A DNA stretch of 64,000 nt from Thermoproteota archaeon (lineage in GTDB: Archaea > Korarchaeota > Korarchaeia > Korarchaeales > JAOZGB01). Under the pieces are notes generated by a model. That model had not been told where the DNA came from, made no database searches, and saw nothing but the letters and a program-made list of their open reading frames with translations. Of the stretch, positions 48,219-64,000 are shown piece after piece (within the stretch, counting starts at the first letter, position 1; each line of letters opens with the position of its first letter). The position numbers and the translations under genes were made by a program. The stretch covers positions 64,001-128,000 of the forward strand of contig JAVCBU010000012.1 in assembly GCA_037917685.1 (NCBI GenBank), in the 5' to 3' direction.

Positions 48219-50020
48219 AGAAGTAGGGTGGCGACAATTATAGCTATAGCTGCAATAAATACCGTAGGAGCAGCGACCTTTGAAAGGGCGGCTGTTGACC
48301 TTACGAGTGTTAGAAAACCTGGCATTGATGATCCAAAGATCTTAACTTTTACCCATGAGATTTTCCCGCTTACTACGGCAGGTTTAAAGTCTTGTATCGC
48401 TTCCCTCCCTAGATTGCAGGCCCATTCAGATATTATTTCAGGATCTATTTTAAGTCCAAGTTGGTTAAGGCCGAGGGTAATCTTATTTACTGAATGGGTA
48501 TCCGTGGATAAGACTTCAGCGTAGTCGTATCCTAGCTTACGTAGCTCCTCAACACATTTTAGCCTAACCTCTGGGAGCATGTTGTTGCAGTCGATTACAA
48601 GGTACGCTGTTTTTGTATCTCCAGTCTCTACAGCTAAAAGCTTCAGGCCTGCAGGTCCTATCCCTTTAGTCTCGTCAACTTGAGGTTTAAACTCTGAATA
48701 TCCTATTTTCAGCTGGTGTACAGCTGTATTCAGGGAAAGTTTGGATGCAGCTTTTATGGCTAGCCTTCTATAGTTAAAACCTGCTTCTGATGTAATAGTT
48801 ACGAGGAATCCCTCTTCCCTCAGGGAATTATGTGCATCCACAGGTATGACTAGGTTAAACCCGCAGCACGCTTTGACAGCATCCATCAGTGTTATTCCAA
48901 GGGCGAGATCTATGTCTTCTGTGTCATTGGGCGCGCGTGAAAGTATGAGTAGAAGGTTATCGCCGAACTGCTGGGCCATTACCCACTCCGAATTAGACTT
49001 TAAAATGATCGGATTACTACCCATGTTCGAGAGGGCCCTATATTCGCCTTTCGATACTTCTTGAACTATTAGGTCTACGTAGTCGGAGGATACAAGGTTA
49101 TACTCATGGCCTACAGTTCCATGTAGAACTATAACTTTGTCGAATGCGTTATTCTCTTTTAGTTTTTCTTCTATGAGGTATGGTAGATTGCTACTGCCGA
49201 GATGCATGAAGGGGCCTGGATGGACGTATGGTACTATGATCCCTATCGCCTCACCATTCCTTTCGATTTTAAGCGATATTACTGGTAGCACCGCTGCCTC
49301 CCCTATGGACTCAAAGAACGACTCTAGAGGGCCTGGTGAACCTCCTAGGATCTCCATTAACGCTATGTTTAATAGTTCCAGGGCCCCGGCGCCGTATCTA
49401 TCTTTAAGAGGTGCATCAACGAGGGTTATAAATGACCAGGAGGCTATAAGCATTACTATCATAGCCAGTAAGCCTTGTATCAGGGGGCTGCTAAAACCCA
49501 TCCTAATAGCTTGAAATGTTAGAAGCTGGTAGGCAGCTATAGAGAGGACGGGCTGTAATGCTGACAGAAAGAAGACTGGGATAAGGTTGTATCCCGATAC
49601 TGCTGTTATCGCAATGAATCTGAGTGCGAAAACAAGGGCATTAGACACTACAAACATACTAGTTGAAAACTCAATGTTGGAAATGTTTTCTATCAAAATA
49701 GAAGTGAAGAACAATGTTATTATAAGAAGTTCACCTGCAAGGGATAGAAAAGCCGACCTTCTAAGATCTAGAAGGTCCTCCCTTTTCCAGAATGATGTAA
49801 GACTGGCGGATACAAAGGAGGGGATGGAGAAAACAGTAAAACCGTAAATTGTTCCTTGAAATAGGCTTGACAGATTAAGCTTAAAGCTGCCTAGGATAAC
49901 TGTAACCAGTATCCCTGAGAATACGCCTATTAAAACGGTGAGAGGAATGGTAACACTTAACCTAGGAATTGAGAAAAAGTATTTTCCGAGTTTCGAGACA
50001 GCTAGCTCCATTTTCTTCAT
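48215..50020 (-). CDS. DUF2070 family membrane protein
   Basis: N-terminal TM helices; VHPGPF..LGSSNLP, HG...HEYN, DAHN, DCNN, TDTH. Confidence 0.85.
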   Translation of the reverse strand: MKKMELAVSKLGKYFFSIPRLSVTIPLTVLIGVFSGILVTVILGSFKLNLSSLFQGTIYGFTVFSIPSFVSASLTSFWKREDLLDLRRSAFLSLAGELLIITLFFTSILIENISNIEFSTSMFVVSNALVFALRFIAITAVSGYNLIPVFFLSALQPVLSIAAYQLLTFQAIRMGFSSPLIQGLLAMIVMLIASWSFITLVDAPLKDRYGAGALELLNIALMEILGGSPGPLESFFESIGEAAVLPVISLKIERNGEAIGIIVPYVHPGPFMHLGSSNLPYLIEEKLKENNAFDKVIVLHGTVGHEYNLVSSDYVDLIVQEVSKGEYRALSNMGSNPIILKSNSEWVMAQQFGDNLLLILSRAPNDTEDIDLALGITLMDAVKACCGFNLVIPVDAHNSLREEGFLVTITSEAGFNYRRLAIKAASKLSLNTAVHQLKIGYSEFKPQVDETKGIGPAGLKLLAVETGDTKTAYLVIDCNNMLPEVRLKCVEELRKLGYDYAEVLSTDTHSVNKITLGLNQLGLKIDPEIISEWACNLGREAIQDFKPAVVSGKISWVKVKIFGSSMPGFLTLVRSTAALSKVAAPTVFIAAIAIIVATLLL

Positions 50021-50097
50021 GAAACCCTACTTATCTCTCCGGTACGTTGTAGTTTAATTATTTTAATGGTTTCCATGGTAACATTTAGGGGGCTAAT

Positions 50098-51414
50098 ATG
50101 ATTATCAGGGGGAGGTGGATTGCAACTTTCGACGAGGAAAACAGGATAATAAAGGAAGGGGGGATTCTCGTAGAGAACGGTATTATCAGCGAGGTTGGGA
50201 GCTTCGAGGAGGTTAAAAAGAGCAATCCATCTGAGGAGGTTGAAGATTTCGGCTTTCTAGTTATGCCAGGCCTTATATGTGCTCATTGCCATGCCTATGG
50301 GGCTTTCGCCAGGGGTATGCCGTTAAAGGGGGCTCCGCCTACGAATTTCGTTGAGATACTGGAGAGGATATGGTGGCACCTGGACAAGAAGCTTACTTTA
50401 GACGATACATATTATAGCGGACTGGTCACTGCGATTGAATCTTTAAAACATGGAACTACATCTATATTTGACCATCACGCCAGCCCGTACGCTATTACTG
50501 GAAGCTTAGACAGGTTGAAAGAGGCGTATTTAAAAGTCGGTTTGAGAGCTAACATCGCATATGAAGTCTCTGACAGAGATGGGTTGGAGAAGGCTGAAGA
50601 GGGCATCAAGGAGAACGTCAGATTTATAAGGATGAACAAGGGGAATGATTTTATAAGCGGAAGCTTTGGTCTTCACGCTTCCCTTACACTCTCAGATCAG
50701 ACGCTTGTGAAATGTGTTGAGGAAGCTAAAGAGCTGGGGGTTGGATTCCATATACATGTAGCTGAGGATATCGCCGACGTTAAAGACAGCCTGAAGAAGT
50801 CTGGCTTCAGAGTTGTCGAGAGGCTTTGGAACCATTCAATTCTGGGAGATAGGAGTATAGCCGCTCACTGTGTGAATATAAGTAGTAGGGAGATAAGGAT
50901 TTTAAAAGAAACCGGGGCGTGGGTTGTCCACAATCCAGAGTCTAATATGAACAACGCTGTGGGAGTTGCACCCGTCAAGAACATGATGGATGCAGGTGTA
51001 AAAGTCTGCCTCGGAACCGATGGATTCACTATGGATATGTTTAGAGAGTCAAAGGTTGCATTCATACTCCACAAGCTTTACACGGCTGATCCGAGAACTA
51101 TGCCTGCTGAAAGGGTGGTAGAAATGTTCAGGTGGAATTCCATGCTTTTCAAAAGCTACTTCCCAAGACCAGCAGGAGTAATTGAGAGGGGTGCATACGC
51201 AGATCTCGTCGGACTGGACTACAATCCATATACCCCCATGAATTCCGGAAACTTCCCGTGGCATTTCATATTTGGAATCGACGCCTCCAACATTAATGTA
51301 GTCATGGTTGGTGGGAAAATAGTGTTTAAGAATGGTAGAATTTTAACTGTAAACGAAGAAGATGTTTACAAGAGAGCATTCAAGCTTGCTGAAAAGCTGT
51401 GGAAGAGGCTATAA
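50098..51414 (+). CDS. ssnA: Putative aminohydrolase SsnA
   Basis: PGLICAHCHAYGAFARG, DHHASP, YEVSDRDG, GLHAS.TLSD, HIHVAE, HNPESNMNNAVG, GTDG. Confidence 0.88.
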   Translation: MIIRGRWIATFDEENRIIKEGGILVENGIISEVGSFEEVKKSNPSEEVEDFGFLVMPGLICAHCHAYGAFARGMPLKGAPPTNFVEILERIWWHLDKKLTLDDTYYSGLVTAIESLKHGTTSIFDHHASPYAITGSLDRLKEAYLKVGLRANIAYEVSDRDGLEKAEEGIKENVRFIRMNKGNDFISGSFGLHASLTLSDQTLVKCVEEAKELGVGFHIHVAEDIADVKDSLKKSGFRVVERLWNHSILGDRSIAAHCVNISSREIRILKETGAWVVHNPESNMNNAVGVAPVKNMMDAGVKVCLGTDGFTMDMFRESKVAFILHKLYTADPRTMPAERVVEMFRWNSMLFKSYFPRPAGVIERGAYADLVGLDYNPYTPMNSGNFPWHFIFGIDASNINVVMVGGKIVFKNGRILTVNEEDVYKRAFKLAEKLWKRL

Positions 51415-51492
51415 GTTCTTATCGCTTGCAAACTAATCATTATACTAGAGATTTAGTAAGTACTAGTAGGCCTTATTAACAGAAATTAAAAA

Positions 51493-52656
51493 TTGGAGGA
51501 TAAGGATATAAATGAAAACAGGTTCAGGTCCGGTGTTCTAATGATATTCTTATTATTATCGATTGGGGTTCCTATTACCCTTCTTTATCTTATCTACACT
51601 TCATACGGGTACAAAAAGTATAGAATTGGATTACTGACGATGATTCTCTTTATTTCAGCATTTATATCCTCATTGTCGGAAACTTTAAGGTTTCTATTTC
51701 TCGATCAGCAATTATCACTTCTGTGCGCTGTAGTCTCGATGATTACCATGTCACTATGCCTTAGTATCTACACTCATCTATCAGCTGAGCTTTACACGGG
51801 GTTCGTAGTACTGGAGACACCCGCATTTCTTATATCTAACTATTTTCTACCAGTATCAACAATTTTACTTGGTTTTTCCGGAGTACTTACATCCAAAGGA
51901 GTGCTATACTACAACCAATTTTGGAATACAAAATTATATATAGGTCTCCCAGGGCCATTTTTCACCTCGTGGGTAATTGTCCATGGATACTTGATTCTAT
52001 CGGCTCTTATATACGTATTTTTAGTATATAAGCGTGCTACAGGAAAAGTAAAAAGGTTTTACCTAAGTATGGCTATATCACTAATCACACCCGCAACTAT
52101 CTATGCGATAGCCGGGATTATAGATCCTGTCCTAAGCATATATAAGGTTGGAAATCATAGCATTGTGGCTTTACCATTTGCTTTAATTACCTGGGTCAGC
52201 CTGAAGAAGTATGGTATACCCTCTTTCACATATGAGCCTCCTGGGGAAGTTCCGGGGGAGATAAGGTTTTTTAAGAATTTCGAGGATGCTTTAAGCCTTT
52301 TTGAAGGCTACCGTATGTCTGGCTATAGATGTCTCATCGTTAGTAGGAGAAGATTTCGTGGAGTATCATTGTGGATAAGCAAGGTTAACGCTTATAATGC
52401 CGTGTCTCCGCAACATTTATCAAGAATAAAGACTATATTGGGGGATTTCGTTTCTGAGGGGGGTAAAGTAATTCTCATAGACTGTCTTGAATTACTCATA
52501 TTATATAATGGGATACATGAAGTGTTAAAGTTTCTTGGTTATCTACGAGATGAGGCTTCACTGAACAAGGCTTTAGTGCTGATACCCTTTGAACAAGACG
52601 CGTTTGAACCTAAGACTGTAAGCGCAATTATGAGAGTCTCTGGTGGGAGGGCTTGA
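51493..52656 (+). CDS. Multi-TM sensor fused to a DUF835 (inactive KaiC-like) domain
   Basis: About 7 TM helices, then LIVSR...LWISK...VSP..L...VILIDCLELLILYNG..EVLKFL..LRD. Confidence 0.8.
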   Translation: MEDKDINENRFRSGVLMIFLLLSIGVPITLLYLIYTSYGYKKYRIGLLTMILFISAFISSLSETLRFLFLDQQLSLLCAVVSMITMSLCLSIYTHLSAELYTGFVVLETPAFLISNYFLPVSTILLGFSGVLTSKGVLYYNQFWNTKLYIGLPGPFFTSWVIVHGYLILSALIYVFLVYKRATGKVKRFYLSMAISLITPATIYAIAGIIDPVLSIYKVGNHSIVALPFALITWVSLKKYGIPSFTYEPPGEVPGEIRFFKNFEDALSLFEGYRMSGYRCLIVSRRRFRGVSLWISKVNAYNAVSPQHLSRIKTILGDFVSEGGKVILIDCLELLILYNGIHEVLKFLGYLRDEASLNKALVLIPFEQDAFEPKTVSAIMRVSGGRA

Positions 52657-53783
52657 TACTTCAAATCCTGCAACTTCCAGTGATAGCCTACCTGTTCTAC
52701 TTGGTTGCCACGAATCGGAAGTGGATTAGGTACCAAGGTGTTTACAGGCTACTATATTTCTGGTTGTTGTCAGGATTAGTGTACGCTATATTAGAGTTTG
52801 CGTCAGTTATAGCGGGGGAATTCTCGGTAGTTACATTTAAAATGATGATGGTGGTATCTGTTCTTTCGCTATCGTTCTTTCTACAGCTTACTTCGGCATT
52901 TAAGTGGAAGGAGGCTTATATAGCGGCGTTGAGACCTGTATTCTATGTTCCATGGGTTCTTTCGTTCCTCCTTGCCTACAGTTCCAATGTAAGTATCAGC
53001 ATTAGAAGTTTGTTCGGTCTAAACGTTGCCGTGGTCAATGCAGATATATTAATTGCGATACTACTCTTCCTATGTGGGCTAATGCTCGCCGGTGGGGCGC
53101 TTACGCTTGCTTACCATCTCTTTACTATTTACCCGATTGAGAGAAAGATATTTATATTATCAGCAGCCGGAATATGGATATCAATATGTTCAGACTTCCT
53201 CCTATGGGTATTTCCACTATTGCATGGAAATATGATCCTAGGGTTCCACATGTTTGTCCTTATACCTGCAATTGCCGGTATGACGCTAACTGCCAGAGTA
53301 TACTCGCTTGCTTTTACACCTAGAAAGGGAAAGCCAGCCGCCACGAAAAAGGCTGGACGGGGTGAAATCATTATTTTCATTCACAAAAGGTCTCTCCACG
53401 CGAGAAACATATTCATGAACTACCTTAAGGAGGGGTTTACAGGATTATTCGTCTCTCCGGATCCATATGAAGCTGAGATAAGAGCTAACATGACATTAAA
53501 GCTTGACGTTAGCGAGATGGAGGGTTGCGTCCATCCTGCGCATGTTAACAGGCTTGAACATTTAGTATGGGATTTTTGCGTAAGGACAATGAATCCTGTG
53601 GTTCTCATTGAGGGGTTGGAGGAGATTATGGCTCAGGTAGGTTGGATTGAGTCTCTAAAGTTTGTTGATTCCCTTATAGATGTTGCGGAGACCACAGGAG
53701 CGGTAATATTATTCTGGGTTGACCCTGAAATATTCGATCCCAAGAGATTTATGCTACTTTCGAGGCATGTCAAAATAATGTAA
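52653..53783 (+). CDS. Multi-TM sensor fused to a DUF835-like domain
   Basis: About 7 TM helices, then GLFVS..P...VHP...VVLIEGLEEI...GW...LKFV..L.D...VDPE.F. Confidence 0.75.
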   Translation: MILQILQLPVIAYLFYLVATNRKWIRYQGVYRLLYFWLLSGLVYAILEFASVIAGEFSVVTFKMMMVVSVLSLSFFLQLTSAFKWKEAYIAALRPVFYVPWVLSFLLAYSSNVSISIRSLFGLNVAVVNADILIAILLFLCGLMLAGGALTLAYHLFTIYPIERKIFILSAAGIWISICSDFLLWVFPLLHGNMILGFHMFVLIPAIAGMTLTARVYSLAFTPRKGKPAATKKAGRGEIIIFIHKRSLHARNIFMNYLKEGFTGLFVSPDPYEAEIRANMTLKLDVSEMEGCVHPAHVNRLEHLVWDFCVRTMNPVVLIEGLEEIMAQVGWIESLKFVDSLIDVAETTGAVILFWVDPEIFDPKRFMLLSRHVKIM

Positions 53784-53813
53784 AATTTTATCTAAAGAAT
53801 TCTTACCATATCT

Positions 53814-54269
53814 ATGGTTCTCACCCTAACATGGGAAGACTTTGAAAGAGCATGTAGGAGGATAGCATCTCAGATCAGTCGTTCATACCAGCCTGAATGT
53901 ATATTAGCAATAGCGAGAGGCGGCCTTATAGTTTCAGTAAGGCTCTCACACATGCTTAATGTAAGGTGTTTCGCATTTTCATCCGTAGAGTACTATAGAG
54001 AACCCGGGGTTAAGGCAGGTAGGCCTAAACTCGAGATTCCACCCGTCGGAGAATATATGGGGAAAAGGGTGCTTTTAGTTGACGATATAATTGACACGGG
54101 TGATACTGTAAAACTGATAGTTGACTTGTTGAAGGGAAAGATTAGAGATTTACGTATTGCTGCATTAACATTTAAGCCGTGGACGTCGGTAAAGCCAGAC
54201 TACTATGGGTTTGGCCCTGTAAAGGAGTGGGTGGTTTTCCCATGGGAAATAAAGTGGGATGAGAAATAA
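53814..54269 (+). CDS. Purine phosphoribosyltransferase (xanthine/hypoxanthine-guanine type)
   Basis: LTWEDF, AIARGGL, VLLVDDIIDTGDT, KPDYY, WVVFPWE. Confidence 0.9.
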   Translation: MVLTLTWEDFERACRRIASQISRSYQPECILAIARGGLIVSVRLSHMLNVRCFAFSSVEYYREPGVKAGRPKLEIPPVGEYMGKRVLLVDDIIDTGDTVKLIVDLLKGKIRDLRIAALTFKPWTSVKPDYYGFGPVKEWVVFPWEIKWDEK

Positions 54270-54280
54270 AGTAGGAGGGG

Positions 54281-56140
54281 TTACTCTTCCAGCTTTACCC
54301 CTCTACCTTTCAGCTCTTTGATTACGTATTCAAGCCCTAGATCTTTAAGGGTTGAAGCTTTAGGAATGCCATTGCTGTCCCATCCTCTTGCCTCGTAATA
54401 CCACGTTAACAGCCGATCATAGTCTGAGGACTTCAAAGTCCACCCTTTCAAGGGGCCTTTTGATAGCGGCTGCTTGAACCATTTTTCGGGTGGGTAGTCC
54501 ATTTCTCTACTCCAGCTCGGGTATTCTCTTATCCAGTAGGACCTTATTAAGCTGTATATCCTGTCAGAGATCCTCCATAGATCTTCCAGGGTGAAATCTA
54601 AGCCTGTAGCAGCTTTAAGATACTTAGGATACCATTCAAGGCTGAAGTTCAGCTCTATCCATGGAAGTCTACATGTTACTGCTGACTCGAATAAGCCTCC
54701 ACGGATTCTTTGCATCCTGATGACTCCCTCAACCTTCTCTCTGCTGATCACTTCCCTCCCAAGTTTAAGTTCCCAAGCTATATACCATGCGTCCTTGTGG
54801 TGTGCGCCTATGGGGGAGGTCCCATATGCTAGTGCCATTCCAGGTGCTGCATGGCAGTCATAAGCTGATATTTCTAGGCCTTTAACGTGCATCGCGTAGG
54901 CCATGCTTCCACGCCCGAGGCCAAGTGCTACTCTTCTAACCCCCTCGGCGAGCACGTCTCCGTATCCATCCCTGTTGCATATCATTTCTGCAAGCCTATA
55001 ATATGCTTCTCCGCTGCCCCATTCAGGCTTTACACCAATCTTATCCTCTGACACTAGACCCTTCATGTAAGCCTCTGTTATGAATGCCATTACGCTCCCC
55101 AGCGATATGGTGTCGGCTCCCATCTCATCTGCAAGCAGGTTTAACGAGAGAACCCAGTTCATATCTCCAACCCCGATGTTTGACCCCAGCATTCCAGCGT
55201 TCTCATAGTCAAGCTCTGTCCTGCTGCCTTTCAGGGGGCCTTGTTTAATCTCGCAGACGTTTCCACACTGCATGTTACAGTTGGGACAGCCCTTCCTCAA
55301 AACTTTAAACTGCTCCTCCATTGTTTTGCCGGATATTCCATCAGCCTGGTCGAACACACCTTCTGTAAAGTTCCATGTCGGTAGCACACTGTTACCCTGC
55401 GCCCATTCAACAGTCATCATTGTTCCCTGACGGATCCAGAAATCGTATCCTTTAGCGTTTCTAACCTCCTCATACCCTTGCCTCCCCATATCGGTTATTT
55501 CCTCATCTGCAACAGCTATCTCACCCAAGCCCTTAAATACTATAGCTTTGACGTTTTTAGACCCCATGACAGCGCCTAAGCCTGGTCTGCCTCCGGCTCT
55601 ACCGTAATCCGACACTATAACAGCAAACCTAACTAGTTTCTCACCCGAAGGACCTATAAGGAGTATGCCTGCATCCTTCCCATACTCATCCTCAAGTACT
55701 TCCTGTGCATGATATGTTTTTGAACCCCAGAGATCCCCTGCATCTTTGAAGCTAACACTTTCATCCTCAACCACCAGGACCGTTGGCTTCCCCGCCCTAC
55801 CTTTTAGGATTAGCATGTCGTATCCTGCTTTCCTCAGCTGAACAGCTGCTTTCGTGCCGATGTTGCCGTCTCCATACCCCCCTGTTAACGGAGATTTCGC
55901 CGCTACCACAAGTTTACCACTGCTAGGTAGAGGAAGGCCTGTCAACGGCCCCGCCGCAACTATGAAAAGATTGTCTCCATCGTAGGGTCCCACCTGCGGG
56001 CTTACCTCATCCCATAATATCTTTGCAGCGAACCCTCTCCCTCCAAGGTAGTCTCTTGCGAGTTTTTCATCGAGAGTTTGAGTAACGTGTTTGCTTCTGG
56101 TCAGATCCACCCTTAAAACCTTCCCGCACCATCCCTTCAT
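54281..56140 (-). CDS. Aldehyde:ferredoxin oxidoreductase family (tungsten/molybdopterin)
   Basis: YLGGRG, KSPLTG, GRAGGRPGLGAVMGSKN, GCPNCNMQC, DYE, DTIS, YYEARGWD..GIP. Confidence 0.93.
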   Translation of the reverse strand: MKGWCGKVLRVDLTRSKHVTQTLDEKLARDYLGGRGFAAKILWDEVSPQVGPYDGDNLFIVAAGPLTGLPLPSSGKLVVAAKSPLTGGYGDGNIGTKAAVQLRKAGYDMLILKGRAGKPTVLVVEDESVSFKDAGDLWGSKTYHAQEVLEDEYGKDAGILLIGPSGEKLVRFAVIVSDYGRAGGRPGLGAVMGSKNVKAIVFKGLGEIAVADEEITDMGRQGYEEVRNAKGYDFWIRQGTMMTVEWAQGNSVLPTWNFTEGVFDQADGISGKTMEEQFKVLRKGCPNCNMQCGNVCEIKQGPLKGSRTELDYENAGMLGSNIGVGDMNWVLSLNLLADEMGADTISLGSVMAFITEAYMKGLVSEDKIGVKPEWGSGEAYYRLAEMICNRDGYGDVLAEGVRRVALGLGRGSMAYAMHVKGLEISAYDCHAAPGMALAYGTSPIGAHHKDAWYIAWELKLGREVISREKVEGVIRMQRIRGGLFESAVTCRLPWIELNFSLEWYPKYLKAATGLDFTLEDLWRISDRIYSLIRSYWIREYPSWSREMDYPPEKWFKQPLSKGPLKGWTLKSSDYDRLLTWYYEARGWDSNGIPKASTLKDLGLEYVIKELKGRGVKLEE

Positions 56141-56242
56141 GGTTTAACCCCCTACCAAACCCTTGAAACAGGACAATTAAAAAAGTGTCCCCTACCGTGA
56201 TTCAGAGCTACTATTTTATTTAGGTATGCCTAGCTCATAAGT

Positions 56243-56662
56243 TTGGGTGTATGGTTGCCGAGAGGTAGGCATCTCGATGATTGGAAGAGGGCTTTCCTCA
56301 CTGTTTGGCACGCTGCCAGAGGTATACTTGTTAGGAGTCAGAGCAGCAAGGTCTTCCACCTTGCTAAGGCCGCGTACCATGGGTACAGGTTACTAGAGAA
56401 GCAGACAAGGGATGCATATGAAAAATACGGTATCTCAAAGAAGCAGTATGGCCTACTTCTCCTGCTTGCCGCGGGGGAGAGCTTTACAGTTAGGGATGCT
56501 GCGGAAAAACTTAAAGCAAGCCAGGGAACCGTAAGGAAATATTTAAACCTTTTCGTAAAGGCTGGAATAGCTGATAAGGATACCTCGACAAGGCCTTATC
56601 TTTACAGGATGAAGGATAAGTATTTAAAAGCAATTAGGAAGAGTTTAAAGGAGAATGACTAA
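56243..56662 (+). CDS. Winged-helix transcriptional regulator (MarR/TrmB-like)
   Basis: GISKKQYGLLLLL....FTVRDAAEKLKASQGTVRKYLNLFVKAGI....TRPYLY. Confidence 0.75.
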   Translation: MGVWLPRGRHLDDWKRAFLTVWHAARGILVRSQSSKVFHLAKAAYHGYRLLEKQTRDAYEKYGISKKQYGLLLLLAAGESFTVRDAAEKLKASQGTVRKYLNLFVKAGIADKDTSTRPYLYRMKDKYLKAIRKSLKEND

Positions 56663-56891
56663 GGATGAGCTACCCCTAGAAAACCTTAGCATGAAGGTTT
56701 TCCAGATCACATTACTCACAAAGGCTTTAAAGAGAATGATAGGCAAGCTTGAAAAGCAGGAGCTTGATAGGCAGTTCCTAAGCGACGCGGTTCTTGTTAT
56801 AGGATTCTTGTTCATCCTATTAGGGATAAGTAAGCCTGACCTACTTGATGACCTAAAGTCAATGTTAAAGAAGGCCCTTGGAGAAGAATAA
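56655..56891 (+). CDS. Small hypothetical protein with one hydrophobic helix
   Basis: Overlaps the wHTH gene end; GGAG upstream of the ATG; segment AVLVIGFLFILLGI. Confidence 0.6.
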   Translation: MTKDELPLENLSMKVFQITLLTKALKRMIGKLEKQELDRQFLSDAVLVIGFLFILLGISKPDLLDDLKSMLKKALGEE

Positions 56892-56973
56892 ACCGCGGAG
56901 ATAAGTGCACGTACAATATTATACGGTATAGGGTACAGGGTTACTAGCCTGCCTAACACTTAGCATACTCGTT

Positions 56974-58443
56974 TTATCCTATATAGATTGTTTCGGTGGG
57001 TTTCTTTGGGCGTTTTCCTACTAGGCTTAGAACATCTTCTGTTCTTATGGTTTTTCTCCCTTCGTTTAAAGCCTTAATCATCGCCCTCCTCACTAATTCT
57101 TTTGTCTGCGTTAGATCGTACCCTCTGAGTGCCTTAGAAAGCTTTTCGTAGTCCACCTCCAGGTTCATCTTAAACTCATTTGTTGACTCTTCAAAAACAG
57201 ATTTAATTATGTGGGGAGGCAGACTCACATCAATAAGAACCTTTATGTCGGCCATACTTTCAAACTTTCCATTAAGGTACTCCGGCTTTCCAACACCGGC
57301 AACGATTGGTATACCCTCCTGTGTTACATCTGTAATCCAAACTATCAGGGAGGACATCAACATAATCATGAATTCTCTCTGAGAGTCGTCGGCCATCTCC
57401 ACCAGCCCCTCCTCAGGAAATACATATTCAGCTTCATCTATCAGAATTAGAGATTTAGATTCTTTGGCTAGATTAAGTACTTCCTCAAGGATCTTAGGGC
57501 CATATTTTAGTAGGCCGAGACTCAGAACATACAATTTTGCGCCAGCTTCCTTTGCAATAGCCTTGATGAACCCAATCCTTAGCTTTTCATCTCTACATTT
57601 AACTATTGTGATCTTTGGAATAGGGTATTGCTGGGGGGACTTAAGATAGTTTATGAGAAGCGAAACTTTAAACCATGGCTCTTTAAACTTCTTGAACTCC
57701 TCAACGTTAACATCAAGTTCGGCTGGGAGTATTTCGGGTATGGTTTCTTCCATCTTAAACTCGAAAAGACTCTTCAGATCCTCCTCGGAGAAGATTGGTT
57801 TTAAAAGATCAAGGTAGGCTTTGAGTCGTCCTCTAACATAGTCAGGTAAATCTGTCCTAAGCAAGCTATCTATGACATCTCGTGTGTGCTTCATTGCTTC
57901 AAGATCGAACTTCGGATAAAAGAATGAAGAAAGGGTCATAGCCTTAACAATGTCTAGGATACTCTCATAGTTCTTTTCCCTGCTAGCTATTAGAGTAAGC
58001 CTCTCAGGATCGAGCCTGGAACGGACGATTATCGAAATGGACTGTTCATCATTTTTAGTAAGCGATAACAAACCATAGAGGTAAAACGGCCCTATCTTAA
58101 AGTTATAATCCCTTTTAACCCCGAAATATTCCTTTATTTCCACTATTTTGAATTCTCCACCTCTAGACTTTGAGGAGAGGATCAAAGGCTCATAAAACTG
58201 AGATGAGAATACACCGGTGACGGAGACGAGATCCCCGGGAAGTACAACTTCCCTTGGAACAGGGGAAACGAGTACAAGAATGCTCCCGGATCCATCGGTT
58301 ATTCTAAGCCTTGAAAAAACCCTTGAAAGTGACTGTAGAGCATAGCCAGCTAGAACTTCCTTCACAACGCCCTTTACAGCCACCCTTTCACCTTCATATT
58401 TACCCGGAGAACTAAGGATCTCCCCTATTGATACAGTATCCAT
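56974..58443 (-). CDS. OB-fold protein fused to a degenerate classical AAA+ module
   Basis: N-terminal OB-fold (GERVAVKGVV...ITDGSGSILV). C-terminal KAIAKEAG, LILIDEAE and lid VDYEKLSKALRGY...LVRRA..AL.EGR..I..ED. No GxxGxGKT. Confidence 0.75.
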   Translation of the reverse strand: MDTVSIGEILSSPGKYEGERVAVKGVVKEVLAGYALQSLSRVFSRLRITDGSGSILVLVSPVPREVVLPGDLVSVTGVFSSQFYEPLILSSKSRGGEFKIVEIKEYFGVKRDYNFKIGPFYLYGLLSLTKNDEQSISIIVRSRLDPERLTLIASREKNYESILDIVKAMTLSSFFYPKFDLEAMKHTRDVIDSLLRTDLPDYVRGRLKAYLDLLKPIFSEEDLKSLFEFKMEETIPEILPAELDVNVEEFKKFKEPWFKVSLLINYLKSPQQYPIPKITIVKCRDEKLRIGFIKAIAKEAGAKLYVLSLGLLKYGPKILEEVLNLAKESKSLILIDEAEYVFPEEGLVEMADDSQREFMIMLMSSLIVWITDVTQEGIPIVAGVGKPEYLNGKFESMADIKVLIDVSLPPHIIKSVFEESTNEFKMNLEVDYEKLSKALRGYDLTQTKELVRRAMIKALNEGRKTIRTEDVLSLVGKRPKKPTETIYIG

Positions 58444-58619
58444 CCTCTATTCCCGTAGGCCTAGCAGAGATCAACACTTAAAAAATTAACCAGTAACATG
58501 TTCAAGCCCGTATAGAAGAAAGCTTATGCAAACGGTTACCATCCTGATCCCAATGGTGAGCCTCATCAGGGCAGGAGAGAAATTAAAAAGGTAACAATTA
58601 CTTATAGTAGCGGCAAAAG

Positions 58620-59180
58620 ATGTTGGAAATAGAGTTGCTAACAATAATATCGATAATAGTTGGAATACTGGTCGCATATAGGATTATTGTCGCCATAATA
58701 TTTACAGGAGTAGCTACGAGGCTACGCGGAAGGGTTTCTAGAAGCGAAGCTCTGAGAATATTTATTGGAAGCCTCCTAGACACGGTTTTGGGTGCTGTCC
58801 TAATAGCAGCCTCGGCGATTACACGTGAAGAAGACAAGGAAAAAGCCCATCGAATTATAGAAAGAATAGCAACGGATATTAGCCATATTAAGACCACACT
58901 ACAAGAAGAAGAGTCTCCACAAGTGAAAAACATGCTCAGAGACATATCCCTTGTCGAAGAGAAAATACAACAACTAAAAGAACACCCAAAAATAGGTCTC
59001 TACGAGATTATAGAAATCCTTGAAAAGATTGAGGAAAACATCTTTTATCTAAGGGACAAATCGGATGATTTATCGCTTGCCAAGGACTTGAAGCAGAAGA
59101 AAATAATAGGTTCTGCATGTGAGAGGAAGATATCAGAACTTAAAGATTACATACAAGAAATTCTAAGAAAAATAGAATAA
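58620..59180 (+). CDS. Hypothetical membrane-anchored coiled-coil protein
   Basis: Hydrophobic N-terminal helices followed by heptad-rich charged helices. Confidence 0.7.
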   Translation: MLEIELLTIISIIVGILVAYRIIVAIIFTGVATRLRGRVSRSEALRIFIGSLLDTVLGAVLIAASAITREEDKEKAHRIIERIATDISHIKTTLQEEESPQVKNMLRDISLVEEKIQQLKEHPKIGLYEIIEILEKIEENIFYLRDKSDDLSLAKDLKQKKIIGSACERKISELKDYIQEILRKIE

Positions 59181-59275
59181 ACTACCATGGTTAAGGGAGA
59201 GCTACCGCCATTTAGAACTTGCTGAACTAAAAAATAAAATTTATTAGTCTAAAAGGGGTGTTAATAGCGAGAAAA

Positions 59276-59647
59276 ATGGATGAGGAAGAGAAACCGGTTG
59301 AAAAGACAAAGGAAGAGGAAACAAAAGAGAAAGCAGCCAAAACACTCCTAAAAATTCTAGGAACCTCGGCAGTCACATACGCCATCATGGCAACAATCCT
59401 AGAAAGGAAGGAGATAATGGAAATCCTCGCAAGAGAAGACCTAACCATGAAGGAGAAAGCAAAACTCATCGCAAAAGAATACCTACCAGAGAAGAAGAAG
59501 GAAGACCTACTAGAACTCGGAGTAGCAGCCTTAACAGCCCTAGTCCTAGCGGGAAAAGAAAAAGCACATAAAGAAGAAAAGAAGGAAGAAGACGCATTAA
59601 AAGAGCTTATAGAAGCACTACAGAAAGCAGAAGAGAAAGAGGAATAA
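59276..59647 (+). CDS. Hypothetical Glu/Lys-rich protein with two hydrophobic helices
   Basis: ATG at 59276 is in frame with the track ORF; strongly purine-biased coding strand; has a neighbouring paralog. Confidence 0.75.
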   Translation: MDEEEKPVEKTKEEETKEKAAKTLLKILGTSAVTYAIMATILERKEIMEILAREDLTMKEKAKLIAKEYLPEKKKEDLLELGVAALTALVLAGKEKAHKEEKKEEDALKELIEALQKAEEKEE

Positions 59648-59651
59648 GCTA

Positions 59652-59689
59652 TTTCAGCTACGCACTAGCTACGCGCTTTCAGCTACGCA
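59652..59689. repeat. Short direct-repeat cluster
   Basis: AGCTACGC at 59656, 59667 and 59681; the 13-mer TTTCAGCTACGCA at 59652 and 59677. Confidence 0.75.
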
Positions 59690-59732
59690 ACAAATAACTT
59701 GAACATAAATGTTCCTCCTCTATTATTTTTAA

Positions 59733-60041
59733 TCATTCAAATAGTAACAGTTTTAGCAGACTGTTAATGCTTCTACTTTCAGATTTCGAATCACTTTCCT
59801 TTAAGTACAAGGCTATTGCCGTCAACACTGTCGTCCCGATTTCTAAAAGGTCTTCTATGGTTTCTTCCGGAAGATATTCCTTTACCATAAGGCTAAGTTT
59901 CTCTCTCTTAAAGTTAGATCCTCTCTAGCAAGTATGTCTACGAGTTCTTTTTTCTCAAGAATGGTTGTTAATATTAGATATGAAGCTGTAGAAGCCCCGA
60001 GGATTTCGAAAAAGTTCTTAGAAATTTCTCTTAGGGTCCAT
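59733..60041 (-). pseudogene. Frameshifted convergent paralog of 59276..59647 (not in the ORF track)
   Basis: Reconstruction: MD/LREISKNFFEILGASTASYLILTTILEKKELVDILAREDLTLRE/KLSLMVKEYLPEETIEDLLEIGTTVLTAIALYLKE...LLFE*. Requires removing one base near 60036 and one extra dinucleotide in the (CT)n run at 59901-59908. Confidence 0.8.
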
Positions 60042-60226
60042 TTAACTTCAACAGTATTGAATCATATACTCCAGTTTTAAAACTAATTCATCACTGATAG
60101 TTAGTTCGACCACTTTAAGCAGGGGTAAAGATCGGTAATATATTTAATCCCTTGCACTTTACATTAAATCGTAAGCTTGCGAGGAGACAGGATGACATTA
60201 TGATAGGTATGCTGGTTTTCGTATAG

Positions 60227-61804
60227 GTGTCTTGTTTGAAGTTTCTAATAGTAGATGCAACTGCCTCTGGAGAAGGCATTAAGCGTTCTGCCGTCGACGT
60301 GATTGGCGCAGGGTGCAGGGCGGTAGCTGGAGTCTTAGAGTCTTTCCAATGTGATTTTAGCATCGCACGTGTTGAGGATGTCTTAAGCCGTTCTTCTGCT
60401 TTCAAAGATTTTGATGTTGTTATGGTTAGCGCAATGTCTATGGATGAAGAGGCTGTCCGAAGAGTTGCCAGAATTTTTGGTGATAAGATTAAGATTTTAG
60501 GCGGGCCCATAACCTGCGATTCTGCAACTGTTAGAAAGCTCGGGTTTAACGTGGGTGTTTGGGGAGAGGGCGAGCATGTTGTATCAGGCATGCTTTCCTC
60601 CGGATTTTTCAACGAAGGAGACATAAATCTTCTACGGGGTGTTCCTAACATTGTTTTCCCAGATGGTAGTGTAAGTCGACGTGTTAGGCTTACACTTGAA
60701 GAATACAATAAGTATAGACCCTCTGTATTGGCGGTTAAGGGGTATTCCAAACTTCCAAATTATCGTGTGGCAAGGGTTTATGTTGAGGTTGAGCGTGGCT
60801 GCTCCAACTTTAACCGTGCTAGGATTCTTGCTGACGGTTCTGTTTGTCGTAGGTGTATGCGGTGTGATGGTTTGAGTTTTAGGGATAGGCTTGGGTGTCC
60901 TCAGGCTGTCCCACCGGGGTGTGGGTATTGTTCTATTCCGGCTGTTTATGGCTATCCGAAGTCTAAGAGTGAGGATATAATTTGTTATGAGGTTGAGGGT
61001 TTGATTAGGGCTGGCGTCAGACGTATCGTCTTGTCTGGGGCTGACTTCTTGGACTATGGACGGGAGGATGTTATAGATCCTCCTACCCATCCTTCCGCTG
61101 GTGGAGCTAACATTAGGAGGATAGAAAACCTTCTTAAGAGAGTTACGTCTATCCCGGAGGTTAGGAGTGGCCGTGTATACTTGTCAGTGGAGAATGTTAA
61201 GCCTTCTCTTTTGACGGAGGATGTTGCTGAATTGTTGGCTCGCTACCTGCCTAACAGTGTTATCCATGTGGGGATCGAAACAGGGGATGACGAGCATTCG
61301 GTTCTCCTCGGGAGGCCGTGTAAGGCGTCGGAAGCTGCGAAATCTGTTGAAAACGCGGTTAAGTATGGTCTTAGGGTGTACACGTATTTTATTCATGGCT
61401 TGCCGGGTCAGAGTATGAGGACTGCGAGGAAAACTGTTGGCATGATAGAAGCGTTTTATAGGCTTGGTGTGGAAAAGGTTACCATCTACCGTTTCAAACC
61501 CTTACCCGGCTCCGCCTTTCAAGATTTCAAACCTGCACCATCGGCCAAGCGTAATAAGGCATCGTCACTGATATGGTCAGCTGCCTACAGGTTTAACCTG
61601 GAGAGGAAGAGGCAGCTCGTTGGCAGGAGGCTTGTTGTTCTCTATGCCGGTAGAAGGGGGAAGTATGCGGTTGCCTATCCGCTTAGGGAGGGGCCAACCG
61701 TCTATGTCAAGGGAGTCCCAAGGCTCAAGGTTGGGGAAGAGTTCCAGGTCAGGGTTGCAGGTGTTATTTCTGACAGGCTGGTGATGGGTGTTTACGTTCC
61801 ATAG
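60227..61804 (+). CDS. Radical SAM protein with a B12-binding-like N-terminus, split Cys motif and TRAM-like C-terminus
   Basis: DVIGAG.R, VSAMSMD, LGGP, GEGE; EVERGCSNF...CRRCMRC...CP..PPGCGYC; GIETGD; YFIHGLPGQ. Confidence 0.82.
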   Translation: MSCLKFLIVDATASGEGIKRSAVDVIGAGCRAVAGVLESFQCDFSIARVEDVLSRSSAFKDFDVVMVSAMSMDEEAVRRVARIFGDKIKILGGPITCDSATVRKLGFNVGVWGEGEHVVSGMLSSGFFNEGDINLLRGVPNIVFPDGSVSRRVRLTLEEYNKYRPSVLAVKGYSKLPNYRVARVYVEVERGCSNFNRARILADGSVCRRCMRCDGLSFRDRLGCPQAVPPGCGYCSIPAVYGYPKSKSEDIICYEVEGLIRAGVRRIVLSGADFLDYGREDVIDPPTHPSAGGANIRRIENLLKRVTSIPEVRSGRVYLSVENVKPSLLTEDVAELLARYLPNSVIHVGIETGDDEHSVLLGRPCKASEAAKSVENAVKYGLRVYTYFIHGLPGQSMRTARKTVGMIEAFYRLGVEKVTIYRFKPLPGSAFQDFKPAPSAKRNKASSLIWSAAYRFNLERKRQLVGRRLVVLYAGRRGKYAVAYPLREGPTVYVKGVPRLKVGEEFQVRVAGVISDRLVMGVYVP

Positions 61805-62125
61805 CTATGGGTTTACGTGTTCGGATTCCTCTCTTTCGATTTTCATTCGGAAAATGTCCCCCACTGAGGGTCTCCCTAGCTTTACGAACTCGTCGTAGGT
61901 CAGGTTAACCACTATGTCTGGGATCTCGATTCTCCCGGACTGGACAGGGAGACCTATCGCGGAGAAAGCTCTCACTGTTGCGTCGACAATCGCATCGGTC
62001 ATTTCATCTGTGTATTCTGGATATGGAGGCTCAGGTTCTACCCTGGATATTTCCTTAAGGGCTATTGAAATTTTTTCTCCCATCGATCTAACGTTTACGA
62101 CCCTAAAGACTTTCTCAATCGCCAT
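61805..62125 (-). CDS. Arcadin-1-like protein
   Basis: From ATG 62125: beta strands, a central helix, then GRIEIPDIVVNLTYDEFVKLGRPSVGDIFRMKIE, resembling the arcadin-1 C-terminal pattern as I recall it. Confidence 0.55.
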   Translation of the reverse strand: MAIEKVFRVVNVRSMGEKISIALKEISRVEPEPPYPEYTDEMTDAIVDATVRAFSAIGLPVQSGRIEIPDIVVNLTYDEFVKLGRPSVGDIFRMKIEREESEHVNP

Positions 62126-62159
62126 GCTATATCCACTGGATAGATGGTTGTTAAGTGTT

Positions 62160-62486
62160 TTAAATTTTCTCAATTGGGGTGGCAAGGGCGGTTTCCGTTG
62201 AGAAGGCCTGCTGTAAGCTTAGAACCGCCCTTGAAGCAACCACTTCGTCCGTGGCTTCAAAAACGAAAAGAGCGTCGTACTTACCCATTAATAACAGCAT
62301 ATGATGAACCTTGACGTTTTCCGACCGCTTAAATTTTTCCATCGCATCCTTCAGCTCCTCTATACTATTTGTTCTAACTTTTGCAAGTGTAACAAACAGC
62401 ACCGCTTGACACCTTCCACTAAGCTGGAAAATATAAAATAAAAAGGTAATATTTAAAGATCCACCGATCATGCTTGGAGTTATCAT
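62160..62486 (-). CDS. GYD-domain protein (true start probably near 62410)
   Basis: LFVTLAK...VKV....LMGKYDALFVFEA.D...A......STET..A. Confidence 0.7.
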   Translation of the reverse strand: MITPSMIGGSLNITFLFYIFQLSGRCQAVLFVTLAKVRTNSIEELKDAMEKFKRSENVKVHHMLLLMGKYDALFVFEATDEVVASRAVLSLQQAFSTETALATPIEKI

Positions 62487-62641
62487 CCGGCATAAGTTTG
62501 TTACAAGACAGATGGGAATGGAAGAAATATAGAATTTTAGACTCCAGGGTTGTCTGGTCGGTTGGTTAGACCAGGCGATATTGGATGTCTACCATTCTGT
62601 TTTTAATTTTATCATGGGTGTTAAGGTTTATCTGGTGATTA

Positions 62642-63877
62642 ATGATGAACAGGGATGATGTTCATTTGGGGGTTTGTAAATTACACATAGGTTCTATTTC
62701 CTCCCATGCAGGTGATCTTTCGGAGTTAGAAGTGCATCTAGAGACTATCTATGCTCTCTCATCCTATTATGGAGAGGTTCGCTTTCCTAGGATTAGCTAT
62801 AGGCAAGTTTTTTATGATAATTTTATAGATGTGCTCATGAGGGATGATGACGGGTTCCTGGCAGCTGCTAGGCCCATCTCGGCTCCTGCAATGGGGGATA
62901 TAGGGGTAGGCCTTGGCCTCTCTGCTCTGGCTATCCATGTGGGGGGGTTTGACCCTATATGGGATGTTGCAACCCTACCTGACACCCCGATAGCTAAGAC
63001 ACCTGACCTCCTTATATATCCTCGAGAAGAGGATGGAAGTTTTGTAGTGGAGTCTAAGGCCACCACCCACTTCGAAAATCTACGGGCAATGTTTGACAGA
63101 GCATGGTTGCAACTTAGAGGCCCGTATGCAAGATGCGCCAGCCAGCTTTACTCAACGGTCTCCTATATTCGCATCGCCGATAAGCCCGGCCCAAAAACAG
63201 TGGTGAACATAGACAGTTCAGGGTATACTCGTTCCCGGAAATGCACCGTAGACCTTGCAAGGTCCCAGTTGATAAACCTTTCCGACTGGATTAACCCCTC
63301 AGACTCTCTTATGCTTGTAAGACAGTATGTATGGTCGTTGAAGGGTGTTAAGAAGCCCGATATTACTCTTAATATGTCAGGTTCCTCCTTGACTCTTAAC
63401 TTTTTAAACATCTACGCTGGACCTTCCGATCTGAAATGTAACGTTAAGGTGAGTTTCCAAAGGGAGGGGTTCGCAACGGTTAAGGTGGCACCTGACGTAC
63501 ACTACTACCTTGAAGAGGCGCTTGAGGAGTCGCCTGGAAGCGAACCGAAAATAATTGTTTCTGCAAGAGACGCCATACGTGAAGCAGCAAAACCTGCACA
63601 GGAGTTATATGCTGAGTACGTGTCTATATTCGACTGTGAAACCGTTAAGTTAGCGGTAGGTGATAGGTCGATAGGAGCATTCTTTAAAAACAAGCTACAC
63701 GGGTTTGCCCTTAGCAACGGAGTCATGAGGATGCGTATGCCTTGCAGGGAAGCTTTATCACTTGATGACTGGGCCTGGGCTGCATCTGTTATAAAGGAGA
63801 ACCTTCCCAATAGTCAAGAGATTTCTTTTAAAGATTTCTTAATGCTTCTAAAGGATCTTATAGGATCCATTTGCTAA
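62642..63877 (+). CDS. Putative PD-(D/E)XK nuclease-fold protein
   Basis: GDIGVGLGLSAL...KTPDLLI......FVVESKAT...A..QL. Confidence 0.55.
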   Translation: MMNRDDVHLGVCKLHIGSISSHAGDLSELEVHLETIYALSSYYGEVRFPRISYRQVFYDNFIDVLMRDDDGFLAAARPISAPAMGDIGVGLGLSALAIHVGGFDPIWDVATLPDTPIAKTPDLLIYPREEDGSFVVESKATTHFENLRAMFDRAWLQLRGPYARCASQLYSTVSYIRIADKPGPKTVVNIDSSGYTRSRKCTVDLARSQLINLSDWINPSDSLMLVRQYVWSLKGVKKPDITLNMSGSSLTLNFLNIYAGPSDLKCNVKVSFQREGFATVKVAPDVHYYLEEALEESPGSEPKIIVSARDAIREAAKPAQELYAEYVSIFDCETVKLAVGDRSIGAFFKNKLHGFALSNGVMRMRMPCREALSLDDWAWAASVIKENLPNSQEISFKDFLMLLKDLIGSIC

Positions 63878-63947
63878 CATTTGATGTGTAACTGCATAGA
63901 ATAAATTTAAATGGTGACGGGAATCTGAAGCGGTGAGGTGTACAGCC

Positions 63948-64000
63948 ATGGCTGAAGAGATAAAAGAAGTTGAGAAGATACTGAGGCCGCCCGAAAAGGT
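63948..64000 (+). CDS. 5' end of a gene that runs off the window
   Basis: GGTGAGGTG ribosome-binding-like site, then ATG giving MAEEIKEVEKILRPPEK. Too short to assign a product. Confidence 0.55.
   Translation, partial: MAEEIKEVEKILRPPEK

Follow-up and report, generated by a model that had tools for sequence, protein, structure and literature searches.

What kind of locus is formed by six open reading frames (ORFs), here called A to F, that lie between a gene for aldehyde:ferredoxin oxidoreductase (AOR) and a gene for a radical-SAM enzyme in a korarchaeal genome, and which of these frames belong together? They are found in a 64,000-nucleotide stretch of the assembly GCA_037917685.1 (contig JAVCBU010000012.1, positions 64,001 to 128,000), which as a whole is called the window. 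The earlier note on this DNA had regarded all six as one unexplained unit made of a winged helix-turn-helix (wHTH) regulator (A), a small hydrophobic protein (B), a fusion of an OB fold with an inactive AAA domain (C), two further small helical proteins (D and E) and a decayed relative (F), and every one of the six ORFs was recovered at the position that it had given (Table 1).

This article describes the outcome of a computational analysis of the locus. The functional unit is a Korarchaeota-specific module of four genes, A, B, D and E, which is real, conserved and lineage-restricted; C is not a core component of it. Korarchaeota are uncultured and their lineage-specific genes are mostly unannotated. 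At this locus a set of hypothetical ORFs is replaced by a defined module, and since its gene order is kept, its invariant residues are listed and its phyletic pattern is clear, the module can be tested by reconstitution. As to its role, a membrane sensor composed of B and D that would control the regulator A, E being an effector or adaptor, is tentatively preferred here.

Distribution, order and selection of the A-B-D-E module

Relatives were collected by six-frame searches of related genomes, as a word-based search returned no more than 3 clusters for C and 3 for D and overlooked relatives at 35-40% identity. Of 41 related genomes 8 contain D, and the same 8 contain E; the two genes are adjacent in every case. 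A profile search places D in 8 of the 40 genomes of the class. Full-length A (E <= 1e-57) was likewise detected in 8 of 40 genomes and only in those that bear the module; the A matches of 17 other genomes are generic wHTH domains within open frames of 230-280 aa. Among 43 genomes of the phylum, 9 contain B. All carriers belong to the genus of the window (g1) and to two others (g4 and g6), that is, to three of the ten genera of the phylum, and these are also the only genera with B. None of B, D and E was found in any of the 21 genomes of g2, the largest genus. In a profile search of 1.84 billion representatives the D family comprises 8 clusters, all at E <= 1e-37, and nothing remote was retrieved; the E family amounts to 15 clusters in 5.8 billion, one of which bears the source name of a hypothetical protein from a Candidatus Korarchaeota archaeon. 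A candidate locus in a metagenome-assembled genome of Spirochaetota (L011) was discarded as a spurious coiled-coil match of the search of genome contigs.

Gene order is maintained across genera. In the seven loci fetched from g4 and g6, A, B and D are encoded on the same strand and E is convergent to them; the four genes are adjacent in six of these loci, and the seventh contig begins 127 nt upstream of D. A, B and D form one operon in these other genera, with B-D gaps of 21 nt (L039) and 80 nt (L036) by ORF coordinates. A and B are translationally coupled: the overlap recorded for the window in Table 1 is 4 nt in L039, and the two frames are 3 nt apart in L036. Each genome contains one copy of the module, and the flanking genes differ between genera, so that the module keeps together in a changing context. 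A C-type gene was found inside the module in none of the seven loci; the co-occurrence on which the idea of a single unit depended is therefore borne out for A, B, D and E (six of the seven loci of g4 and g6) and fails for C.

The module tolerates insertions. In genome G011 a toxin-antitoxin pair consisting of a HepT-like RNase and an MNT nucleotidyltransferase lies between A and B (L038, 6710-7835) on the opposite strand, which demonstrates that opposite-strand insertions into the module occur and parallels the placement of C in the window. A gap of similar size between A and B was observed in G009.

Selection was examined with the metagenome contig L022, which is collinear with positions 48565-64000 of the window (15.5 kb) at 79.6% nucleotide identity. 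The codon-wise ratios of nonsynonymous to synonymous substitution rates (dN/dS) are 0.028 for A, 0.019 for B, 0.078 for C, 0.054 for D and 0.028 for E, those of the flanking genes being 0.037 (AOR) and 0.121 (radical-SAM). Control frames on the opposite strand are interrupted by stops in L022 or else have higher ratios (0.11-0.25). With values of 0.02-0.08 against such controls, the five intact ORFs are real protein genes under strong purifying selection.

A set of genes that occurs patchily, in 3 of 10 genera, and in a context that differs per genus might be a mobile or conflict element (toxin-antitoxin-like, an abortive infection system or a viral remnant), in which A would act as antitoxin or repressor and B or D as membrane-damaging effector. 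The coupling of a small hydrophobic protein to a DNA-binding protein would fit such an element, as would the HepT/MNT pair inside the module in G011 and the likeness of the predicted D bundle to the executioner bundles of MLKL and of the coiled-coil (CC) domains of NLR proteins (Z about 10). This explanation is nevertheless improbable, given the very strong purifying selection, the single copy per genome and an identity between genera that follows taxonomy (35-39% for D of g1 against g4 and g6). No integrase or transposase is encoded near the locus according to the ORF list and Pfam, in agreement with the earlier note; a tRNA scan of the window gave none, and an Rfam scan of positions 55900-60400 had no match at E <= 1. 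A library of viral folds returned no match to D at E <= 0.001.

Defence and phage families were searched with PADLOC 2.0 and PHROGs 4 on 12 proteins. None of the B-, C-, D- or E-type proteins among them matched PHROGs, and nothing was detected for them in PADLOC at E < 0.002. The marginal PADLOC matches are AbiGi for E of the window (E 0.0095), PDC-M64B for D of L036, and Cas8b and PDC-S05 for E of L036; B, C and D of the window have no match at E <= 0.01 in either database. A retrieves only generic wHTH matches in PADLOC (SoFic, Csa3, CasR). The small proteins B, D and E, for which no family had been recognized from the letters alone, indeed lack a convincing match in Pfam, PHROGs and PADLOC, and on sequence they are tiny orphan families. 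Keyword searches of the literature uncovered no account of this module or the OB and pseudo-AAA family, which is not proof of absence, and an undescribed system is plausible.

The OB and pseudo-AAA protein C

The predicted structure of C (predicted local distance difference test, pLDDT, 76.6) is divided into an OB fold (residues 2-105), a helical domain (122-268) and an AAA domain of the classical clade with its lid (278-472). The OB barrel of the model is superposable on known OB domains, with 90 of 91 residues of RPA (3e0e, Z 12.3, root-mean-square deviation (rmsd) 1.9 Å) and with PolC (3f2b, Z 11.8), nucleic-acid binding being the predicted type only. PF00004 matches residues 293-401 with 26.6 bits, above its gathering score of 21.2, and the nearest folds are those of FtsH, Rix7, Cdc48 and Msp1 (Z 16-18; FtsH 4ww0, Z 18.1; Foldseek E 1e-9 to 1e-8 for the other three). 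The best sequence match in the PDB is PAN (3whk, E 6e-5), and against the PAN model TIGR01242, which has a cut-off of 500, C reaches 27.7 bits. When C is aligned to PAN, the Walker A P-loop (GxxGxGK[ST]) falls in a deletion, and all 12 family rows are without it. By alignment, the Walker B sequence LILIDEAE keeps its DE only in C of the window and of L022, and the sensor-1 Asn and the Arg fingers are replaced. An OB-AAA fusion with an inactive AAA domain, as the earlier note had described it, is thus confirmed as an OB fold joined to an AAA domain devoid of a P-loop.

C terminates in ...IYIG, and a Tyr at position -3 is found in 10 of 12 aligned family members. This tail was considered as an HbYX motif and rejected, because its Tyr is third-last; a passage of PMC3493965 defines the motif with a penultimate Tyr/Phe. 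In this genome no PAN scores above the family cut-off and three Cdc48-like genes are present, which agrees with the statement, in a passage of the same article, that Korarchaeota lack PAN (PMC3493965).

Related proteins of 415-460 aa, 20-25% identical to C, form a family with members in 27 of the 41 related genomes; two more genomes were matched only through the AAA domains of Cdc48-like proteins. The P-loop is missing in all members, and those other than C also lack the lid and the DE. By its sequence C is a divergent paralogue of an order-wide pseudo-ATPase family, which may be a PAN-derived pseudo-ATPase or adaptor. The C-family genes of g4 and g6 are located on other contigs and have other neighbors than the module; in g4 these encode a 232-aa protein and an ATPase resembling SMC, in g6 a DUF3786 protein, and DUF3786 also adjoins the family member on contig C4 of the window's genome. 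In g4 (L012, 4282-8093; also L013 and L014) the C-family gene is followed by the conserved gene for the 232-aa protein, which has no Pfam match, and this locus faces a gene for an SMC_N-type ATPase of 582 aa together with two conserved genes that have no Pfam match, possibly a condensin-like arrangement. Contig C4 of the window's genome (G000; L021, 7423-8666) carries a second C-family gene that adjoins a DUF3786-like gene and is apparently frameshifted within the OB region, as homology runs on in another frame upstream of the 327-aa ORF. The family bears on the decay or repurposing of proteasome-associated AAA proteins.

Only in g1 does C separate B from D, as seen in the window and in L022, and for this reason it is not regarded as a core component of the module. 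A single system of six genes, with the small helical proteins scaffolded by the inactive OB-AAA protein and serving, for example, in nucleic-acid sensing, is very improbable. Such a system would account for the position of C in L022, for the 14,025-nt contig of a third relative that encodes C-, D-, E- and F-type proteins, and for the divergent transcription of C and D, whose 176-nt spacer contains promoter-like boxes that are conserved; the resemblance of the OB domain to the nucleic-acid-binding folds of RPA and PolC and the purifying selection on C (dN/dS 0.078) would suit it as well. It is contradicted by the seven loci of g4 and g6, all without a C-type gene in the module while their C-family genes reside on other contigs, and by the strand of C, opposite to that of A, B and D, which are contiguous elsewhere. 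The proposal of a six-gene unit scaffolded by C is not supported.

Predicted properties of A, B, D and E

The translation of A most likely starts at the TTG at 56255, since the longer frame is interrupted in L022 by a stop at codon 4. A contains a recognizable wHTH domain of the MarR/ArsR/TrmB superfamily (MarR/Lrs14-like, at about residues 58-130); residues 61-125 match 13 Pfam HTH families at E values of 3e-6 to 0.08, all under their gathering scores. The profile of A also retrieves structures of MarR (E 1.3e-4), 2d1h (5.4e-4) and the Lrs14-like 6cmv (5.8e-3) from the PDB, together with those of AdcR and ArsR. The extension of roughly 45 residues at the N-terminus has no match, and a stretch in the N-terminal part, W..H..RG.LVRS.SSK..H..KAAYH, is invariant across genera.

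B consists of a predicted amphipathic N-terminal helix, an invariant DRxFLSDAV motif and one transmembrane (TM) helix with an apparent free energy (dG) of +0.6 to +3.6; its invariant D44 is located in or beside the hydrophobic helix. A paralogue of B (83 aa) was encountered between glnA, for glutamine synthetase, and a gene for an MscS-type mechanosensitive channel (PF00924) in 4 of 4 g6 genomes having this paralogue (L042, 5643-8117; L043, L044 and L045). In G023 the paralogue is shortened to a 51-aa frame. A passage of PMC12787533 describes mechanosensitive channels as confined to one marine clade of Korarchaeota. Homology between B and E was considered and rejected (hhalign probability 0.2%), and a prediction of an A-B complex scored 0.02 against a mark of 0.32, which is no evidence either way.

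D begins with a strongly hydrophobic TM helix (apparent dG -3.1 to +0.1) that includes an invariant Y20-R21 pair, followed by a second helix that is marginal as a membrane helix and contains the invariant D54; R21 and D54 are thus invariant charges in or beside hydrophobic helices. The loop between the two helices has 4-5 Lys or Arg residues in 9 of 9 sequences. The N-terminus probably faces the outside and the loop the interior. The topology of the remainder is ambiguous, as an intracellular bundle requires that helix 2 not cross the membrane. In the predicted structure (mean pLDDT 82) the N-terminal helices 2-36 and 41-67 have pLDDT values of 50-78 and a four-helix bundle at 73-185, which bears the motif RDK[AS]DD[IL]S, about 87-96. 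Of the TM coiled-coil protein proposed earlier the membrane anchor is retained, whereas the long coiled coil gives way to the bundle.

E is Glu/Lys-rich and has two hydrophobic helices, as the earlier note had perceived; these are Ala-rich and joined by a conserved KE[YL]LPE motif. With an apparent dG of +2.4 to +10, however, they are too polar for clear TM segments, and E is predicted to be a soluble or peripheral helical protein. It has its own TATA-like promoter. The decayed paralogue recognized next to it was corroborated: in L022 F is an intact minus-strand paralogue of E (101 aa), which is also present in a second relative (P0027), while in the window F has lost 2 nt close to its start and gained 2 nt within an (AG)n run, which splits the frame. 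The dN/dS of F, 0.136 over 99 aligned codons, indicates that these breaks are recent. A long-read indel artefact is excluded, because short-read contigs of two runs with 190-330x depth over F show no variants; these possibly derive from the source sample and so are not independent.

Two further features that had been emphasized did not survive. The pentapeptide KEKAH, taken as a link between D and E, occurs twice among the 738,771 residues encoded by long open frames in this genome, each time within the module (0.17 expected), but its His is not conserved in relatives of E, where the counterpart is KEKAK in L022 and KEKA[KE] or RERAE in other genera; in D of other genera it is PKKAK or ASAKR, and homology of D and E was rejected by profile comparison (hhalign probability 0.4%). 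The repeat cluster between E and F is a trivial local duplication of a 13-mer; two copies do not exceed chance, being reached in 29 of 100 shuffles, and the stretch concerned is largely missing from L022.

Fold comparisons bear on a different role for the small proteins, a structural membrane assembly (scaffold, remodelling or fusion device, or lipid-binding coat) built from B, D and E, with A as a plain local regulator; the hairpin and bundle of D would then act like IncA/SNARE-type or apolipoprotein-type bundles. Both the assembly and this mode of action are unlikely, though they come next to the preferred sensor. The order of parts in D, a membrane anchor and then a confidently predicted four-helix bundle, would suit this role, and the best natural match to the model is chlamydial IncA (6e6a; Foldseek E 0.03; VIA Z 11.1, rmsd 3.1, 122 residues aligned). 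E would be an apt component, being abundant-looking, highly charged, provided with its own strong TATA box and duplicated here. The fold evidence loses force on inspection, since Z scores below about 13 are uninformative for helical bundles with this tool: designed proteins are highest (13.7), above Rx-CC (11.6), IncA (11.1), CAMP factor (10.8), NRG1 (10.4) and MLKL (10.2), and the values of 10-12 are within the range for unrelated helical bundles. These matches, which besides IncA comprise CC domains of plant NLRs, MLKL, CAMP factor and apolipophorin, appear to be generic four-helix bundles only. Membrane remodelling, inclusion coating and nucleic-acid sensing, the roles named in the earlier note, are guesses at this stage. 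Folds of PspA/Vipp1/ESCRT-III and of phasins do not appear among the 50 best rows obtained with the D model, and Pfam has no match, these families included, for 9 members of the D family and 10 of the E family. A PDB profile search with the D family gave designed helical repeats and noise only, and the ESM Atlas gave no usable match for D and E. The tight translational coupling of A and B, in addition, is more typical of a regulator and its partner.

A more elaborate proposal would make A, B, D and E a new archaeal membrane device, in which the D bundle, of the shape seen in IncA, MLKL and CC-NLR proteins, would open to remodel, fuse or permeabilize membranes with E as soluble partner, B and A would constitute a control line from membrane to DNA, and C, with its OB fold, dead AAA domain and conserved C-terminal Tyr tail, would be a relic of the lost PAN unfoldase, recruited in g1 as an adaptor that binds nucleic acid or protein; it is considered improbable.

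The tentatively preferred reading remains that of a membrane sensor. B and D would be embedded in the membrane and, depending on membrane or envelope state, would bind A or let it go; A would then control its own operon and E, and E would be a cytoplasmic or membrane-peripheral effector or adaptor. The co-occurrence of the four genes, the coupling of A and B, the selection on the four, the wHTH of A with its invariant extension, the membrane parts of B and D and, as a weak contextual hint, the MscS-type neighbor of the B paralogue suggest such a circuit. Several points weigh against it. Function is argued from architecture and gene order only, because B, D and E match no family. If helix 2 of D spans the membrane, the bundle would be outside by the positive-inside rule and therefore out of reach of A. 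No operator common to the promoters of A and E was seen by eye, where only TATA-like boxes are apparent. The link of the B paralogue to MscS may be plain synteny, as it comes from related genomes of one genus. Finally, with two genome families only, a loss of C from an ancestral A-B-C-D arrangement is as parsimonious as its insertion here.

The features of the locus are collected in Table 1. The AOR flank is assigned by PF01314 (E 5e-119) and PF02730 (E 4e-74). Other genes of the surroundings are worth recording. Within 61805-62486 on the minus strand a 126-aa ORF has a sub-threshold match to Arcadin_1 (23.6 bits versus 25) and overlaps the end of an ORF with a GYD domain, both being kept in L022. 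At 62642-63877 on the plus strand lies a 411-aa ORF that has no Pfam match and has a conserved counterpart in L022 (phmmer E 4e-245). The region 52653-53783 on the plus strand and positions 2977-5219 of L022 encode a multi-TM protein ending in a DUF835 domain; in L022 a second, distant copy is found directly upstream.

Table 1. Features of the locus, with positions counted from the first nucleotide of the window.
Feature	Position	Strand	Description
A	56243/56255-56662	+	wHTH regulator ORF, 135 aa from 56255
B	56655-56891	+	78-aa single-TM protein, start within the end of A by 8 nt
C	56974-58443	-	489-aa protein with OB fold, helical domain and AAA domain lacking a P-loop
D	58620-59180	+	186-aa protein with membrane anchor and four-helix bundle
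E	59258/59276-59647	+	Glu/Lys-rich helical protein, 123 aa from 59276
F remnant	59733-60041	-	broken paralogue of E
Duplicate of TTTCAGCTACGCA, two exact copies 25 nt apart	59652-59689	+	spacer between convergent E and F

Comparison with known systems

Components of the locus can be set beside known proteins at four points. C resembles the proteasome-associated ATPases PAN, Rpt and Mpa in having an N-terminal OB domain followed by a classical AAA domain and lid, and Mpa (7px9) aligns over residues 20-478 with a Z of 16.6. Unlike them, C has no coiled coil, carries a helical domain of 150 residues between OB and AAA, lacks the P-loop and, by alignment, the sensor-1 Asn and the Arg fingers, and has its Tyr in the third-last position.

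The C-terminal part of A, roughly 75 residues, aligns to the wHTH of the Lrs14/Sta1/MarR regulators of Thermoproteota (6cmv, 2d1h), and the NCBIfam models of Sta1 (E 4.7e-6) and Lrs14 (E 2e-5) match over this part. A differs from these regulators in its scores, 24.6 and 26.6 bits against curated Lrs14/Sta1 cut-offs of 90 and 80 bits (NF040939, NF053606), in its invariant N-terminal extension and in being always coupled to the membrane protein B.

D recalls chlamydial IncA, which combines a bilobed hydrophobic hairpin with a SNARE-like four-helix bundle in the same order of parts. With an identity of 8-14%, a Z in the noise range for bundles and unrelated host organisms, this is a resemblance only.

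The Psp, Lia and PadR-DUF1700 operons serve in envelope stress and join a wHTH regulator to small membrane proteins with cytoplasmic helical domains. The module has no sequence or fold relationship to them, the PspA/ESCRT-III, PspB/C and PadR families being unmatched; it would share with them the logic of gene order, by which a regulator is co-transcribed with small membrane proteins of one or two passes. The components are orphans, yet the logic proposed for them, a regulator with small membrane partners, is of a kind already known. If B and D do sense the state of the membrane, the module would represent an archaeal counterpart of the bacterial envelope-stress circuits, assembled from unrelated parts.

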